From: a virus | Lineage: Duplodnaviria > Heunggongvirae > Uroviricota > Caudoviricetes | Direction: 5' to 3' (one strand) | Length of the DNA stretch: 44,053 nt | IMG/VR virus record: IMGVR_UViG_2597489870_000002 | Location: 1-44,053 of that record | Part shown: positions 1,920 to 36,647 of the stretch, piece after piece | Position numbering within the stretch: the first letter of the stretch is position 1 | How the letters are laid out: every line of letters starts with the position of its first letter | The notes under the pieces: model-generated | Told to the model about the DNA's origin: nothing | Databases searched by the model: none | Seen by the model: only the letters and a program-made list of their open reading frames with translations | Program-made: the position numbers and the translations under genes

Positions 1920-2566
1920 GCTACACGCTCCCGCCCCTGGTTGTCTGTTGGTGACAGCGGAGCATTGCTGAATGCATTTGTTAATCTGGCAATATCCAAC
2001 GCGTATCCAGGGTGTAGTTGCACTGCTGGGTCTTCGCACTGATTACCCCAAACATCGAAGCCATGAGACGACTGGCGGGCGAACAGTTCAATGCGAGAAA
2101 CATCGCCTAACAATTGCACAAGTTTTTCACGAACGACATCTGGTTTTCTTGAATGCTCAAGCCGCGGTGCGGTAAATGACTGAACGATACCTGCATTAAT
2201 GCGCGGAGGTAGTTTTCCCTTTACTGCAAACAGGCAATCTTCACTATTGGCGCGAGTCATGTGACCCATACCCATAACCAGTTTATCTGGTTGTCGACTA
2301 CCACATTTTATCCACGTGAATCCCTTCATGGTCATCAGACGGAATCCCCAGGCTTCAACAACTTTTAGTGCTTCGAGTGGTTGTGTTGGCACCCACCACA
2401 TGGCCAACAGACAGTTTTCATCGGCCAAATCCCACACAGGAAGGCGGCAGATATCCAGCACACTCATAACCGGATATTTAAAACCGGCACCGCGATTACC
2501 ATCTGCGGCTTTGTCCCGGTATACCCAGGGTGGATCTGCATAGATTAGTGTGTATTTCTTAGTCAT
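1916..2566 (-). CDS. MT-A70-family DNA N6-adenine methyltransferase
   Basis: Catalytic DPPW motif (YADPPWVY) near N-terminus; ATG at 2564-2566 preceded by GGTGG; alternative GTG start at 2578. Confidence 0.8.
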
Positions 2567-5025: not shown

Positions 5026-5228
5026 AACTTAACCTTGTATTCGTTCTGCTTGTTGGAACGGGTTCCATCGTGGAAATATATTGCGCTCCTGGTTACCTCT
5101 ACCCATTTGCGACGTTCAAGCTCAGCGATGAACCAAGAAACCTTCGATCTTGAGATACCAAGAATCTTTGCCATATCTCGGATGCTGTGTTTTCCACCTC
5201 GCAGCAATGAGAGGAGTGTTGGTTTCAT
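5022..5228 (-). CDS. Small HTH DNA-binding protein
   Basis: 68 aa with HTH-like segment (IRDMAKILGISRSKVSWFIAEL); ATGA overlap with exonuclease gene. Confidence 0.5.
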   Translation of the reverse strand: MKPTLLSLLRGGKHSIRDMAKILGISRSKVSWFIAELERRKWVEVTRSAIYFHDGTRSNKQNEYKVKL

Positions 5229-5524
5229 GCCGCGTCCCTCTGCCCATCAAGCTGATCAGCCAGATCCCAGCGGGCGATAATTGCCATTGCCTCGCGCCGG
5301 TAGGCATCCATTAGTTCTTCGAACTCAGGGCTGTCTTTAGCGGCCTCCAGTACTTCCTGGCGAACGCCTTTAACTGTTACAACGTCGAAAGTTGATGCCA
5401 GTTGATGAAGCCGGATACTCTCAATCAGTTCGACTTGTCGGTCATATAGCTGTTCTGACAGGCGGTAGTCCTTGTCGAATTCCAGCATGATTTTTTGAAG
5501 ATTTTTCTGCTGATTAACGTTCAT
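5225..5524 (-). CDS. Hypothetical early protein
   Basis: Start placed at ATG 5522-5524 (MNVNQQ) with GGAGG 7 nt upstream; alternative ATG at 5539. Confidence 0.5.
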   Translation of the reverse strand: MNVNQQKNLQKIMLEFDKDYRLSEQLYDRQVELIESIRLHQLASTFDVVTVKGVRQEVLEAAKDSPEFEELMDAYRREAMAIIARWDLADQLDGQRDAA

Positions 5525-5527
5525 TAT

Positions 5528-5679
5528 CAGCCCTCCCATATCTCGTTATCGTTGGCCACATCGCGAGCTTCTTTGCTGACGAAAGCCCACTTAATGCCTT
5601 CCTGTAAGGTGCGGAACTTCCAGCTCATGAATCCGCATGCAGTAACGCAGTACCAACCGTTGATGATTTTCCACTGCAT
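5528..5679 (-). CDS. Small hypothetical protein (50 aa), first gene of leftward early operon
   Basis: Below the ORF-track cutoff; ATG 5677-5679 with GAGGT 8 nt upstream; lies just downstream of the OL-like promoter. Confidence 0.3.
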
Positions 5680-5698
5680 AACTTGTTACCTCGGTCTG

Positions 5699-5776
5699 TT
5701 ACCGTTGAGGTAATGATTATGCGTATTTGGTTTGGTGTCAATAGATATGAGTTAAAAAAATTACCCTTAAGGTAAT
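5699..5776 (-). promoter_or_regulatory. Leftward early promoter with two operator palindromes (OL-like)
   Basis: Sites TTACCGTTGAGGTAAT (5699-5714) and TTACCCTTAAGGTAAT (5761-5776) flank a minus-strand TTGACA -35 (rc of 5736-5741) and TAATCA -10. Confidence 0.6.
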
Positions 5777-5788
5777 TGTGCAGGCAAT

Positions 5789-5810
5789 AAAAAAGCCGCC
5801 AGAAGGCGGC
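5789..5810 (-). terminator. Rho-independent terminator after repressor gene
   Basis: GCCGCC-AGAA-GGCGGC hairpin followed on minus strand by a 6-U tract. Confidence 0.7.
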
Positions 5811-5832
5811 TTACTTACTGAAAAATATGATT

Positions 5833-6417
5833 TTATTGTTTGTTTTTTTCGTTCTGGTTGATGACAAATTCAATGTAACTTTCGATCTTTGCTTTCTCGG
5901 TTTCGGGTAACAATGCGTAGCGCGAGCGGTCATAGTTGATGGTCGCAGGGTCGTGCGGGTGAATCAGTAATTCATAGCCGTGACGCCCGAATGCGGATGC
6001 AACATTCTCCAGGGTGGAAATGGAAACGCTGACCTCATTGTTTAACAGGCGGCTGATTGTCACCTGGGCGACGCCGGATGCGCGGTGAAGTTTTCCCTGT
6101 GTTGAAAGGTCGCGGCTTTCGCTCATCCAGCGTTCCAGGTTGTGAGCCGCCAGCTGACCTATATCGCTCGGGCCGACAGGCTGAAAACCTTCCTGAGAAA
6201 GCGAGCGATCGATATCAAGCCAGTTACGGGGTTTATTGGCGGCAGCTTCAATTTTTCGCGCAACCTGGTCGCCGATAACCTTCTTGCCAAGAGCCCAGCG
6301 GTTTACCAGATTTGCCTGAGTTCCAAGTTTTTCTGCCATCCGCGTCTGAACACCATTGAATTCACGGTCGATCAAGTCGTTGAGATTTTGCCTGCGGACG
6401 TCCTGGATACTTTTCAT
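5833..6417 (-). CDS. CI-like prophage repressor (HTH-XRE), no peptidase domain evident
   Basis: 194 aa; N-terminal HTH (GVQTRMAEKLGTQANLVNRWALGKK) and a second HTH-like segment (ASGVAQVTISRLLNNE); divergent from a cro-like gene across an operator region; no S24 Ser/Lys peptidase motifs seen. Confidence 0.75.
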   Translation of the reverse strand: MKSIQDVRRQNLNDLIDREFNGVQTRMAEKLGTQANLVNRWALGKKVIGDQVARKIEAAANKPRNWLDIDRSLSQEGFQPVGPSDIGQLAAHNLERWMSESRDLSTQGKLHRASGVAQVTISRLLNNEVSVSISTLENVASAFGRHGYELLIHPHDPATINYDRSRYALLPETEKAKIESYIEFVINQNEKNKQ

Positions 6418-6472
6418 TTTCTGGAAAATCGCCTCATATATGAATCAGTAGATGATTCAATTTAAAGCAATA

Positions 6473-6536
6473 TTACCCAACAGGTAAATGCACCCCATAG
6501 GTAACTATCCTTGATTTTTGTTACCTTATGGGTGAA
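6473..6536. promoter_or_regulatory. Immunity-region operator cluster (OR-like) between repressor and cro-like genes
   Basis: Three spaced sites: TTACCCAACAGGTAAA (6473-6488), degenerate GCACCCCATAGGTAAC (6490-6505), TTACCTTATGGGTGAA (6521-6536); TTGATT -35-like hexamer at 6511-6516. Confidence 0.65.
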
Positions 6537-8803: not shown

Positions 8804-8881
8804 TTACCTATGAGGTAATAAAATATTCTAAAATCTATTGATTTCGTGTCTTATGTGGTTTTTAATTACCTCAGGGGTAAA
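8804..8881. promoter_or_regulatory. Promoter region with two operator palindromes
   Basis: TTACCTATGAGGTAAT (8804-8819), TTGATT -35-like, ATGTGGTT (8853-8860), TTACCTCAGGGGTAAA (8866-8881) abutting the start codon at 8884. Confidence 0.55.
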
Positions 8882-32503: not shown

Positions 32504-32663
32504 AACGAATGCCACCGCCGCCCGGGCGGGAATCCGCAGAACGCCCACCGCAGCGGGAGCCGTCAGCGGCAGTATCGCTGTCGTGCTGACAACGACCGGC
32601 AAAGGCCTGAGTTGAAGCTACCAGAGACAACAAAACGAACAGTGCAGCAAATGCTTTTTTCAT
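32502..32663 (-). CDS. Possible small secreted peptide
   Basis: Signal-peptide-like N-terminus (MKKAFAALFVLLSLVASTQAFA) then about 30 residues with 2 Cys; weak ribosome-binding site; lies between two terminators. Confidence 0.25.
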   Translation of the reverse strand: MKKAFAALFVLLSLVASTQAFAGRCQHDSDTAADGSRCGGRSADSRPGGGGIR

Positions 32664-32735
32664 TGTGAAATTTCCATCTATAAGCCACCTCAATGTGGCG
32701 TCAATGAGTGTAGCACTGACTTTTGTTTCGTCCAC

Positions 32736-32757
32736 AAAAAAGCCCGCGGCGCGGGCT
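32736..32757 (-). terminator. Rho-independent terminator of minus-strand two-gene operon
   Basis: GCCCGC-GGC-GCGGGC hairpin plus 6 U on minus strand, adjacent to the stop codon. Confidence 0.7.
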
Positions 32758-33134
32758 TAATTAACTTCGAGGATAATAGAATCTTTAGACTTGAATCCCA
32801 CTTTCCTCATGGCTGTAATGACGTTTTGGATAATCCACGTTTTCCCAAACTCTCTTTCGTGTACAATGGCGCAAGGAAAATGAAGGGCGCTTTTGTTGCA
32901 CTTTATGGTGAAAGTTGTACCTTCGGCAAAATCCAAAACAGTCTGCAGATGTGCAGATATAAACGATTTAAACACATCTTCAAGCTCAGCAAGAGTAATT
33001 GGCGGTTTGTTCCTCTCGTCGTTCAGGCGTTCATATGCTGCATGAAATGAAAAGTGAATTCTTGCCGCATCTTCTTGCAAGATCTCGTTAATCTCATCCT
33101 CAAGATCAATGAGTTGTTGTTCTGTTATAGACAT
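32757..33134 (-). CDS. Hypothetical acidic protein (second gene of overlapping pair)
   Basis: 125 aa; 10-nt overlap with upstream gene; no recognisable motif. Confidence 0.5.
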   Translation of the reverse strand: MSITEQQLIDLEDEINEILQEDAARIHFSFHAAYERLNDERNKPPITLAELEDVFKSFISAHLQTVLDFAEGTTFTIKCNKSALHFPCAIVHEREFGKTWIIQNVITAMRKVGFKSKDSIILEVN

Positions 33135-33343
33135 AGATAACGGGATGTCGCCTCACTTATTTTTTGATTTAATTCATCATCATTGGATGCGCGTACAGTA
33201 GCAACATGCTTACTTTGGCGTAGGGTCCCAATTCTGATATCAAATTCTTCATTATCGAAAGAGTCAACGAAAACAGCTTTACCAGTTTCTGGATGGTAAA
33301 AAGAGGCATAGTTTTGGTTGAGTTGCATATCAAATTTAAACAT
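33125..33343 (-). CDS. Hypothetical small protein (first gene of overlapping pair)
   Basis: 72 aa; GGGAGGATGAT ribosome-binding site; operator-bearing promoter upstream. Confidence 0.5.
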   Translation of the reverse strand: MFKFDMQLNQNYASFYHPETGKAVFVDSFDNEEFDIRIGTLRQSKHVATVRASNDDELNQKISEATSRYLCL

Positions 33344-33460
33344 ATCATCCTCCCATACGGGAACAGACGTGACTTACATACGGTGTGATTTTGACTAGTT
33401 AACTTTCTGCAGCAAAACCATCACGGTAACTACAAACTAAAATGTTACAAATCAACTTTC

Positions 33461-33476
33461 TTACCTTTGGGGTAAT
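33461..33476. promoter_or_regulatory. Operator palindrome upstream of the two-gene operon
   Basis: TTACCTTTGGGGTAAT, with a minus-strand TTGATT hexamer just downstream. Confidence 0.5.
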
Positions 33477-34233: not shown

Positions 34234-34387
34234 GGCGATCACCTTTGTAGTTAGGTTAATCACCACCGCTGAGACCAATCAGATGGTGGTGAACTGTGCA
34301 GAGTTGGTCTTACCGGCTACAAAGGAACCCGGCGCACCTTTCGGTGCCCCCACACAGCCCACCATAGAATAGGTGCGCTTTACACAT

Positions 34388-34406
34388 AAAAAAACCGCTT
34401 ATGCGG
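34388..34406 (-). terminator. Short intrinsic terminator in the ant leader
   Basis: CCGC-TTAT-GCGG stem plus 7 U on minus strand, preceded by two further stem-loops. Confidence 0.4.
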
Positions 34407-34500
34407 CGTATGTGCCTCTGTAGTAATCCGGGAGACCAATCCCGGCACTGGATTTTGCCAGTGCCTGATTACTATGGCACAAGAGGAGTGCGATGTAAAT

Positions 34501-34628: not shown

Positions 34629-35357
34629 ATGGAAGTTTTCTGGATAGTTGTTGGTGTGGTTGCGGTGATTATTTACGTTATCAACCAGAACAAGACTAAG
34701 ATCTCTGATCGTACGGTCGTTAATCAGAACAAAACGATAAAGACCGAAGATGGGGAGATAACGATTAATCGTACACAGGTGATAGACCGCACCTCCACTC
34801 AGTTTCACAAAGCTGGAGGTGATGCGCCTAATATTTCCGTACCTCCTGATTATGATAGTGCGGTAATCCAGACATATTATAAACAGCAGGAGTTAGCAAA
34901 AGAGAGGCAACTGATTCAGCCAAAGCCATTTACAGCAGAGCTGCCACCTGGTGTGTCAACGCGTCCGACATATCATGGAAGATTCCCTGGTGATGACATA
35001 TCGTCTCAGTCACCTAAAAAAGCACTTCAGGTAGTATCAGAGCCAGCAAGAATACCTTCTGTGTCGCCGCCAAAAGAAGAATCAGCTAACAGAGTTTCAA
35101 GTGGTAGCAAGCAGTGTTTGCGATGCAGAATAAACCTTCCATATGAAAAATTCAGGAAATCTTCAAAAAATCCAGATGGATTGACTAAGTGGTGTGCAAG
35201 GTGTCTCGATGGCCCAAAGAATACACGCCATATGAAGTGGTGCCCAATTTGTAATGTCCGCAGAAAACGAACCAGCTTTTACCCTAATAATCAAAATGCG
35301 GATGGCTTAATGGCATGGTGCAAAACGTGCTGGGACGAGCACAAAGCGAAACGATAG
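34629..35357 (+). CDS. Membrane-anchored protein with tandem zinc-ribbon repeats
   Basis: 242 aa; N-terminal hydrophobic helix; C-terminus has two copies of C-x2-C...DGL-x2-WC-x2-C. Confidence 0.55.
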   Translation: MEVFWIVVGVVAVIIYVINQNKTKISDRTVVNQNKTIKTEDGEITINRTQVIDRTSTQFHKAGGDAPNISVPPDYDSAVIQTYYKQQELAKERQLIQPKPFTAELPPGVSTRPTYHGRFPGDDISSQSPKKALQVVSEPARIPSVSPPKEESANRVSSGSKQCLRCRINLPYEKFRKSSKNPDGLTKWCARCLDGPKNTRHMKWCPICNVRRKRTSFYPNNQNADGLMAWCKTCWDEHKAKR

Positions 35358-35378: not shown

Positions 35379-35654
35379 TTATGTGGTTTGTTTTCGTAAT
35401 TGTTCAGCACAATAGTCGAGATGTGTTTGCAGATCCTGCATAGACATCTGTGAGCTGGTGACGTAGTTAATCAGTGCAGTCAGTTCGGCAAGTGGGCCAT
35501 CGACATTAAATCCATCCTTATCGAGATCCCGGAGTAATTTCATCAAGTGCGATCCCTCCACCAGTGACCTGACGCCTCCCGGCGTGTGAATCCTTTCGGT
35601 AAATCCGTCTTCCAGTGGATAGTGATACTGCTGCATCTTATCTTCCCCATGCAA
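35379..35654 (-). CDS. Stand-alone antirepressor C-terminal-domain paralog
   Basis: 91 aa; roughly 45 percent identical by eye over about 64 residues to the C-terminus of the 33541-34233 antirepressor. Confidence 0.5.
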   Translation of the reverse strand: MHGEDKMQQYHYPLEDGFTERIHTPGGVRSLVEGSHLMKLLRDLDKDGFNVDGPLAELTALINYVTSSQMSMQDLQTHLDYCAEQLRKQTT

Positions 35655-35831: not shown

Positions 35832-36647
35832 ATGACGGTCTCAACCGAAGTTGACCACAACGAATACACAGGTAACGGCGTTACGACATCATTTCCTTAT
35901 ACCTTTAGGGTTTTCAATAAATCTGATCTGGTAGTGCAGGTGATTGACCCTGACGAGAATATCACTGTGCTGGCTCTTGATACTGATTACACGGTGACGG
36001 GGGCTGGAGGATATACTGGCGGGAATGTCATCCTCACAACTGCTCTGGAGAATGGATTTCGTATTTCGATAGCACGTGAACTCCCAGTTACGCAGGAAAC
36101 CGATCTGCGCAATCAAGGCAAGTTCTTTGCAGAGGTGCATGAGGATGCTTTTGATAAGTTAACTATGCTGCTTCAACAGGTTAGAAGTTGGTTTAGTCTG
36201 GCGCTGCGCAAGCCGTCGTTTGTCGCAAACTACTATGATGCTCTTGGTAACTACATCCGCAATCTTCGTGACCCGTCACGTCCTCAGGATGCGGCCACCA
36301 AGAATTATGTCGACTCACTGGCAAGCATTAATCTGTCTAAAACGCTGAGAATGCCAGAGGCAGTACCAGAGCTTCCAAGCGCTGAGCTGAGAAAAAACAA
36401 AATTGTAGCAATGGATGATTCAGGAAATCCTATCATGGTTCTGCCTGAATCTGGTTCCGCTTCAGATGTAATGATTCAACTTGCATCAAGCAATGGTTTA
36501 AAGTTTATAGGTGATGTTCAGTCTGTTATAAAATTAAATGATGCTATCGGAAACATAGGTGATAAGATTTTTTTAAAGTCTTATGTTGAAGGTGAGAATA
36601 AAGGTGGTGGGATTCTTGTTGCTGTTGATAACTCACTATTAGCGTAA
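35832..36647 (+). pseudogene. Tailspike/tail fibre, N-terminal fragment truncated by IS insertion
   Basis: N-terminus of podovirus tail-fibre anchor type (NEYTGNGVTTSFPYTF); reading frame runs into the IS left end and stops at TAA inside the inverted repeat. Confidence 0.7.
36636..36643. repeat. Target-site duplication, left copy (CTATTAGC)
   Basis: Identical 8-mer at 39343-39350 directly outside the IS termini. Confidence 0.8.

Follow-up and report, generated by a model that had tools for sequence, protein, structure and literature searches.

Here we describe orfA and orfB, two small overlapping genes carried by a 44,053-nt stretch of caudoviral DNA (IMG/VR record IMGVR_UViG_2597489870_000002, positions 1 to 44,053), the whole of which is called the window below. 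The window is 100% identical to the chromosome of enterotoxigenic Escherichia coli (ETEC) H10407 and, by the RefSeq annotation over its full length, holds a prophage of the epsilon15/phiV10 type (Uetakevirus-like). We propose, at a probability of roughly 0.55, that orfB encodes an endoribonuclease toxin and orfA its protein inhibitor, and that together they represent a new toxin-antitoxin-like family built on the BECR (barnase-EndoU-colicin-RelE) fold. The proposal draws on the structure of the two genes, their strict pairing and mobility, the fold and conserved residues of orfB, and the boundaries of the cargo cassette in which the pair resides.

Gene structure and selection

Both genes are on the minus strand: orfA (33125–33343) encodes 72 amino acids and orfB (32757–33134) 125, and RefSeq lists both products as hypothetical proteins. 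The two open reading frames (ORFs) share 10 nt (33125–33134), from the stop codon of orfA to the start of orfB, and both proteins are acidic, with a calculated pI of 5.16. An original prediction, made from the DNA letters alone, had given these sizes and this overlap, had described the 125-residue product as acidic and had placed the pair on the strand opposite the virion genes. All of this is borne out, the virion genes lying on the plus strand in the RefSeq annotation. A Shine-Dalgarno sequence, GGAGG, precedes orfA at 33349–33353 (minus strand), and GGAG-type sequences occupy the equivalent place in most of 13 loci compared. Since orfB has no good Shine-Dalgarno sequence of its own at a useful distance, its translation is likely to be coupled to that of orfA.

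Against homologues of 45–73% identity, nonsynonymous divergence (dN) of the ORFs is 0.16–0.57 in eight comparisons. Synonymous divergence (dS) is saturated in seven of these; the remaining one has a dS of 2.05 and a dN/dS of 0.13. Homologues of both ORFs are kept across Proteobacteria. Judged by these substitution patterns, both are real genes under strong purifying selection. Could the pair nevertheless be a functionless remnant, hitch-hiking in a defective prophage? The tailspike gene of this prophage is interrupted by an IS66-family element, as such a view would have it. We find the idea hardly credible: orfA and orfB are intact, with sequences 100% identical in two records and about 98–99% identical in others, dN is far below dS, and the conserved motifs are kept across Gamma- and Betaproteobacteria.

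orfA and orfB are strictly paired and mobile

An orfA homologue lies directly upstream of orfB in 14 of 14 genomes found via orfB in a scan of a genome collection with a narrow alignment, at orfB identities down to 35%. These loci include Klebsiella, Pantoea, Erwinia, Proteus, Rahnella, Marinomonas, Thioploca, Pontibacterium, Pseudoduganella and a Pseudomonas plasmid. From the orfA side, all three organisms checked (Burkholderia, Simiduia and a marine metagenome-assembled genome) carry a 125-residue orfB directly downstream. The original prediction had named co-occurrence in other genomes as a check, and in these 14 genomes and three organisms the two ORFs are found together. From the stop codon of orfA to the start of orfB, the distance is −41 to +10 nt in all homologous loci. 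Among close relatives, the orfB family comprises 67 high-identity clusters from Escherichia, Enterobacter, Salmonella, Pantoea and Klebsiella, with the orfA family in the same contigs. In six Klebsiella prophage variants a 70-residue orfA and a 125-residue orfB overlap by 4 nt, directly past a gene for a Bro-N antirepressor, and this single orfB sequence recurs in 3,112 indexed assembly blocks.

The settings of the pair are diverse. They include epsilon15-like prophages of E. coli and Klebsiella, a lambda-like tail cluster and a cI/cro region, as well as integrase-bounded islands, a site beside an AHH nuclease/Imm11 pair, and chromosomal islets after deoBD or between metabolic genes. In Pantoea allii the pair sits by itself among metabolic genes, and the DNA homology to the window consists of the two ORFs only. 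The pair is a true, strictly co-inherited unit that is mobile between prophage types and chromosomal islets.

Decaying copies were also encountered. At one locus (L024) orfA is intact and orfB internally deleted, and at another (L016) neither gene is intact; the small sample of loci examined included no broken orfA beside an intact orfB, and we count this pattern as fitting a toxin and its antidote. An apparent orfA-orfB fusion (P0098) was rejected: it is a frameshifted orfA next to a C-terminally truncated orfB, the decaying copy of L016.

orfB belongs to a large domain family with a predicted RegB/RelE-type fold

Neither protein had a useful match when scanned directly against Pfam, NCBIfam and PADLOC, and PHROGs returned only families of 'unknown function'. 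For orfB there is no Pfam hit at E ≤ 1, no Pfam family is shared among 43 of its relatives, and profile searches of PDB sequences gave no match, the mRNA endonuclease RegB of phage T4 (PDB 2hx6) not being found at E ≤ 10. The original prediction had recognised no family for either protein. This stands for orfA and has to be revised for orfB, which falls into a large, unnamed family of domains that make up parts of multidomain phage proteins and have a predicted RegB/RelE fold. An exhaustive profile search found the domain, of about 115 residues, in 648 representative proteins at E ≤ 1e-3, where it may stand alone or form the N-terminal, middle or C-terminal part of a protein of 200 to 5,704 residues; the 5,704-residue protein carries nine copies. 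Its typical partners are cytidylyltransferase-like (CTP_transf_like), DUF5824 and Zeta_toxin/AAA_33 kinase domains.

Across 43 diverse members (23–90% identity), H31, R36, R41, E50, T107 and R110 of orfB are invariant, and N38, D39, N42, P87, M109, K111 and F114 nearly so, giving the motif H-F-x-D-R-x-N-D-x-R-N ... T-I-M-R-K-x-x-F. An AlphaFold model reached a mean confidence (predicted local distance difference test, pLDDT) of 94.5 with a deeper alignment that included remote relatives, against 50 with a shallow alignment of 17 sequences. The confident model matches the BECR core, in which one or more N-terminal helices are packed on an antiparallel sheet of four to five strands. H31 lies within the helix spanning residues 30–36, and T107 just past the last core strand (98–105 by DSSP). 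Among solved structures the best match is the T4 RegB fold. Among viral models, Foldseek retrieved a 602-residue protein of Sinorhizobium phage phiM12 (E 2.6e-10). At E 5.9e-6 it also retrieved a T4-like protein named 'site-specific RNA endonuclease', as RegB is annotated.

The catalytic residues of RegB are H48 and H68 (PMC3014915). When orfB was aligned by hhalign with eight RegB members, H31, R36 and R41 fell on RegB H48, R52 and R56. For the BECR RNases of phage polyvalent proteins, PMC5512222 describes a His in the N-terminal helix together with a Ser or Thr in strand 4, a configuration that the invariant residues of orfB match. By fold and residue pattern, orfB is best described as a RegB/RelE-fold, PBECR-like predicted endoribonuclease of an unnamed family. 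A zinc site formed by H31, C79, C88 and H92, all invariant among close homologues, was considered and dropped; the cysteines and H92 are not kept in the wider family.

Must a toxin of this fold be an RNase? The pair might instead be a toxin-antidote module in which orfB poisons a target such as DNA gyrase in the manner of ParE, or merely binds RNA or the ribosome. Catalytic residues are missing from ParE-type proteins (PMC11980606). In orfB, by contrast, a His, a Thr and three Arg are invariant over a very wide family, and its best structural match is an RNase with a His/Arg pair at the aligned positions. An orfB that is not an RNase is in our judgement distinctly unlikely.

Outside the paired loci, domains of the orfB type are widespread in aquatic phage contigs (proteins P0113–P0246; viral loci L025–L144). 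At least 120 viral contigs match a degenerate DNA pattern of the core motif, and the domain is encoded by 120 of 120, the largest such protein having 1,915 residues; none of these 120 encodes orfA. A role in counter-defence or in conflict between phages can be imagined, with orfB destroying RNA of the host or of a rival (CRISPR or retron RNA, for example), or with orfA neutralising injected domains of the orfB type. Related BECR domains of multidomain phage proteins have been proposed to act against RNA-based defences of the host (PMC5512222), and the orfB domain occurs in large phage proteins alongside Zeta-toxin-like kinase and nucleotidyltransferase domains. The one-to-one linkage of orfA and orfB, which extends to loci outside phages, is explained more simply by self-protection, and we rate a weapon of this kind as very unlikely.

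orfA is a conserved small partner

Profile searches define an orfA family of about 280 proteins of some 70 residues. F4, M6, N11, A13, F15, V26, S28, F29, N31, F34, L58 and N59 are invariant, and the core reads N-x-A-x-F ... V-D-S-F-D-N-x-E-F ... L-N. No match to Pfam, NCBIfam, PADLOC or PDB was obtained.

A bolder version of the antidote reading would make orfA an immunity protein against RNases injected by phages, the pair then serving both as an abortive-infection switch and as a shield against the orfB-type effectors of superinfecting phages. The prophage would in that case keep a domesticated copy of the RegB-like effector domain known from hundreds of multidomain phage proteins, and an effector/anti-effector arms race would be contained in a single cassette. 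We regard this as very unlikely indeed, a long shot.

The terminator and palindrome belong to the prophage backbone

Where does the mobile cassette begin and end? Its limits were set by aligning the junctions with those of E. coli prophages bearing other cargo, namely a YafO-like gene or one for a 210-residue protein. On the downstream side homology extends through a terminator hairpin and ends there; on the upstream side it extends through TACTATTACC-N5-GGTAA and ends just after GGTAA. The exchangeable cargo therefore covers about 32760–33460 (minus strand), a 117-nt leader followed by orfA and orfB, and what lies outside is prophage backbone.

The intrinsic terminator (32736–32758, minus strand) has a stem that starts within the TAA stop codon of orfB. 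Its hairpin, AAGCCCGCG-C-CGCGGGCTT at 32758–32740, forms a perfect 9-bp G+C-rich stem and is followed by a run of T to 32736; the surrounding 48 nt have a folding energy of −18.1 kcal/mol (z = −2.9). At the other end, the palindrome TTACC-N5-GGTAA at 33461–33475 reads TTACCCCAAAGGTAA on the minus strand (33475–33461). The terminator is common to prophages with other types of cargo, and the palindrome site is kept before other cargo. By these alignments, both are backbone elements serving whichever cargo is inserted. The original prediction had seen a self-contained operon with its own operator and terminator. The hairpin at the stop codon is indeed real, and the palindrome and the TTGATT hexamer (33450–33455) are present, but neither terminator nor palindrome is the pair's own, and the claim of self-containment does not survive the junction alignments.

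TTGATT (33455–33450) may be a genuine −35 element, by analogy with the other cargo: prophages with the YafO-type gene have TTGGTT at the matching place, 5 nt past the operator, followed at 17 nt by a good TGTAAT. We place a candidate cassette promoter at 33427–33455 (minus strand), in which TTGATT is separated by a 17-nt spacer from TAGTTA (33432–33427), again by analogy, here with the CTATTGATT-N17-TTTAAT promoter at 8804–8880 that lies between two copies of the palindrome. The candidate −10 is weak and overlaps a degenerate copy of the palindrome (33429–33415, two mismatches), and a consensus promoter scan did not call this promoter. The leader is not unusually structured (z = −0.35), and Rfam finds no known RNA within the cassette.

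Directly past the shared terminator is a backbone gene (32505–32666, minus strand) with a TTGACG promoter-like sequence of its own. It encodes a 53-residue protein with a signal-peptide-like N-terminus, which PHROGs lists as 'membrane associated protein' in the moron category.

The slot itself lies just downstream of the antirepressor (immI-like) operon. When 5,426 complete E. coli genomes were searched, 548 matched the flanks of the region and only four of these had the pair. Other cargo between the same flanks includes a YafO-family toxin-like gene (L002), the gene for the 210-residue hypothetical protein (L003), one for a DUF4760 protein and further genes, while phiV10 has nothing in this slot. 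In the prophage of E. coli S1-CAM-04-C (L002), an unannotated 59-residue basic ORF (2378–2557, minus strand) overlaps the start of the YafO-family gene, whose own match is below the Pfam threshold (23.4 versus 25 bits). This ORF may be the missing antitoxin of the YafO-family cargo, in the same layout of a small ORF plus a toxin. We count a YafO-family toxin gene with an overlapping small ORF in the same slot as support for reading orfA and orfB as antidote and toxin.

A repressor-type palindrome recurs throughout the prophage

TTACC-N5-GGTAA occurs at 16 sites in the window, 11 of them exact, against 0.78 expected, and none of 100 shuffles came near this number. The 15-bp sites are at 5699, 5761, 6473, 6521, 6858, 8804, 8866, 10216, 12575, 12593, 15883, 33461, 34501, 34594, 35713 and 40850. 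They are often paired, 46–62 bp apart, flanking promoters, and they stand at nearly every boundary between transcription units. Two sites flank a leftward TTGACA promoter beside a cI-like gene, a further two separate that gene from a cro-like one, and two flank a CTATTGATT-N17-TTTAAT promoter past the replication genes; others are found ahead of the terminase and head genes, the tailspike, the holin and the antirepressor operon. With 16 copies located at most promoter regions, we read the motif, from its sequence and distribution, as probably the operator of the main repressor of the prophage. The candidate for that repressor carries two helix-turn-helix domains. The distribution looks similar to that in phage P1, which likewise has a repressor with operators spread across its genome. 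The motif is also found in the Klebsiella relatives (L004–L009), where a copy with one mismatch lies about 126 nt upstream of orfA, and it is absent wherever the pair sits outside epsilon15-like phages. The idea that the pair regulates itself through the palindrome was rejected, since the palindrome is a backbone element and a phage-wide motif.

Directly before the Bro-N antirepressor gene, 34282–34477 (minus strand) contains a C4 antisense RNA (78.6 bits), an isrK-like RNA (73 bits) and C4 a1/b1 target sites. Two of these three RNA elements exceed their Rfam thresholds. The layout is that of a P1/P7-type immI control region, here in an epsilon15-like podophage.

Might orfB then be a tool of the phage itself? 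As an mRNA-processing factor of the RegB kind, it could be switched on together with the antirepressor operon upon removal of the repressor and cut host or early phage mRNAs during the lytic programme, with orfA acting as a timer, chaperone or specificity subunit and not as an antidote. T4 RegB has the closest fold, lytic and environmental phages carry the domain in abundance, and the cassette follows directly on the C4-RNA/antirepressor operon and adjoins a repressor-type operator, with no strong terminator between it and the antirepressor gene. Yet the pair is accessory, being found in so few of the E. coli genomes with such a prophage region and missing from phiV10; some of its loci are chromosomal islets away from any phage genes, and orfA is missing from the phages that use the domain. 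We consider a function in the lytic programme unlikely.

Proposed mode of action and points against it

In the reading that we favour, orfA and orfB would form an autonomous, horizontally mobile toxin-antidote module of two genes with the layout of a type II toxin-antitoxin system; in this prophage it would borrow the backbone terminator and adjoin a backbone operator of the repressor type. orfB would be a metal-independent BECR-fold endoribonuclease, of the superfamily whose RNA cleavage yields 2',3'-cyclic phosphate and 5'-OH ends, with T4 RegB as its closest solved relative and a predicted active site made up of His31 in a short helix, Thr107 at the end of the last core strand, Arg36, Arg41 and Arg110. 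orfA would be made first from the same mRNA, as a small, folded, acidic protein that binds orfB and covers its basic catalytic cleft, the V-D-S-F-D-N-x-E-F segment being the proposed plug, by analogy with barstar and colicin immunity proteins. Ribonuclease activity, toxicity, inhibition by orfA and the nature of the trigger all belong to what we infer here. Should orfA be lost or outpaced, for instance when a phage attacks, when host gene expression is shut off or when the element itself is lost, orfB would be free to cleave RNA and arrest growth.

Wild-type RegB is toxic and for that reason hard to clone, and its structure was solved as the H48A mutant. A resident copy of an enzyme as toxic as RegB would need an inhibitor. 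orfA would be needed only where a cell carries the enzyme long-term, and lone phage copies without orfA are therefore expected.

Several observations weigh against this proposal. RelE-type toxins are typically basic, and in classical type II systems the antitoxin evolves more quickly than the toxin. Here orfB is acidic, and orfA is better conserved than orfB, with 41–52% versus 35–40% identity in the same distant genomes. No DNA-binding family (ribbon-helix-helix, helix-turn-helix, AbrB or Phd-type) was found for orfA and 23 relatives. The hhalign match between orfB and RegB is weak (probability 5.7%, E 0.0067, 37 columns), the position equivalent to RegB H68 is variable in the orfB family (K, R, E, N and others), and RegB, unlike orfB, is a basic protein (PMC3014915). 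orfB fits none of the 13 Pfam families of BECR toxins (PMC11980606), and the sole result from PADLOC 2.0 was a chance-level hit to Cas8b (E 0.009, 13 bits). Finally, the repressor-type operator beside the cassette means that the pair may be silent in the lysogen, a poor fit, at this locus, to addiction or to a standing defence. Silence in the lysogen and induction with the antirepressor operon would favour a role in induction or infection over addiction in the manner of plasmids. The original prediction had suggested a toxin-antitoxin, abortive-infection or superinfection-exclusion module; leaving aside its self-contained layout, this guess fits the co-inheritance, the mobility, the contents of the slot and the fold of orfB.

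Relation to known systems

How does the pair compare with what has been described? T4 RegB, whose cleavage is GGAG-specific and is stimulated by ribosomal protein S1, shares no significant sequence similarity with orfB. It uses a second catalytic residue, H68, for which orfB has no conserved equivalent, Thr107 and Arg110 being invariant instead, and it has no known adjacent gene for a protein inhibitor, whereas orfB always follows orfA. With type II modules of the RelE/ParE superfamily (RelBE, HigBA, YefM-YoeB, DinJ-YafQ and YafNO) the pair shares a bicistronic, coupled layout and a strictly co-occurring small partner. It differs from them in that orfA has no recognised DNA-binding domain and is unusually conserved, and in that the nearby palindrome is not an autoregulatory operator.

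The PBECR domains of phage and plasmid polyvalent proteins (Iyer et al. 2017, PMC5512222) resemble the orfB domain in their predicted fold, in the combination of a helical His with a Thr or Ser in strand 4, and in occurring both solo and as parts of large phage proteins with several domains. In the parts of that study consulted, the clade that is paired with orfA is not among the groups set out. The Pfam models PBECR1–5 and MuF_C are not matched, save for one sub-threshold MuF_C hit in one orfB-domain protein (P0126, E 0.006) that is out of register. Barnase-barstar and the colicin E5 and colicin D immunity pairs offer a functional analogy, in which a small, acidic, folded protein plugs a basic active site of the BECR type. 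The immunity gene usually comes after the toxin gene in those systems, whereas orfA precedes orfB, and the suggested likeness to orfA comes by way of inference and not of a match in sequence or fold.

The two-gene layout of BECR-fold toxins is known; the toxin family described here, its partner and its link to multidomain phage proteins appear to be undescribed. Among the papers searched, none mentions the two protein accessions or their PHROG numbers. If orfB is active and held by orfA, the pair would constitute a new family of RegB-like toxins, absent from Pfam, PADLOC and NCBIfam, with a new kind of antidote in the BECR/RelE world that is well conserved and does not bind DNA. It would also supply a natural protein inhibitor of RegB-type nucleases, of the kind suggested for T4 RegB yet never found (PMC3014915), and would help to work out what the unnamed domain does in environmental phages, where at least 648 protein clusters carry it. 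Given how common the Klebsiella variant is, the pair may affect prophage stability or susceptibility to phages in a major pathogen.

Prophage setting and neighbouring genes

DNA matches to phiV10, TL-2011b, phiv142-3 and vB_EcoP_ZX5 agree with the epsilon15/phiV10 type. The gene order runs from the integrase through recombination genes, the cI-like repressor at 5833–6417, replication genes and the terminase to the portal, capsid and large ejection proteins, one of which belongs to the T7 gp14 family; the accessory region with orfA and orfB, the tailspike and the lysis genes follow.

The tailspike gene (about 35832–39310, plus strand) is cut by the IS66-family element ISCro1 (tnpA, tnpB and transposase) and is annotated in RefSeq as a pseudogene with a missing C-terminus. 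With its tailspike interrupted in this way, the prophage is probably unable to make infectious particles. At 34629–35357 (plus strand), between two copies of TTACC-N5-GGTAA, a gene encodes a 242-residue protein with repeated CxxC pairs and a weak Stc1-like hit. Adjoining it, 35379–35654 (minus strand) encodes a protein of about 85–91 residues that resembles the C-terminal part of the Bro-N antirepressor.

In the Klebsiella prophages (L004–L009), there is another variable slot at about 5200–6500, with the tailspike on one side and the Bro-N gene on the other. Depending on the strain it holds a DUF4760, DUF2335, DUF6236 or Phage_ASH protein or a 495-residue reverse transcriptase, which suggests a defence or accessory hotspot beside the pair.
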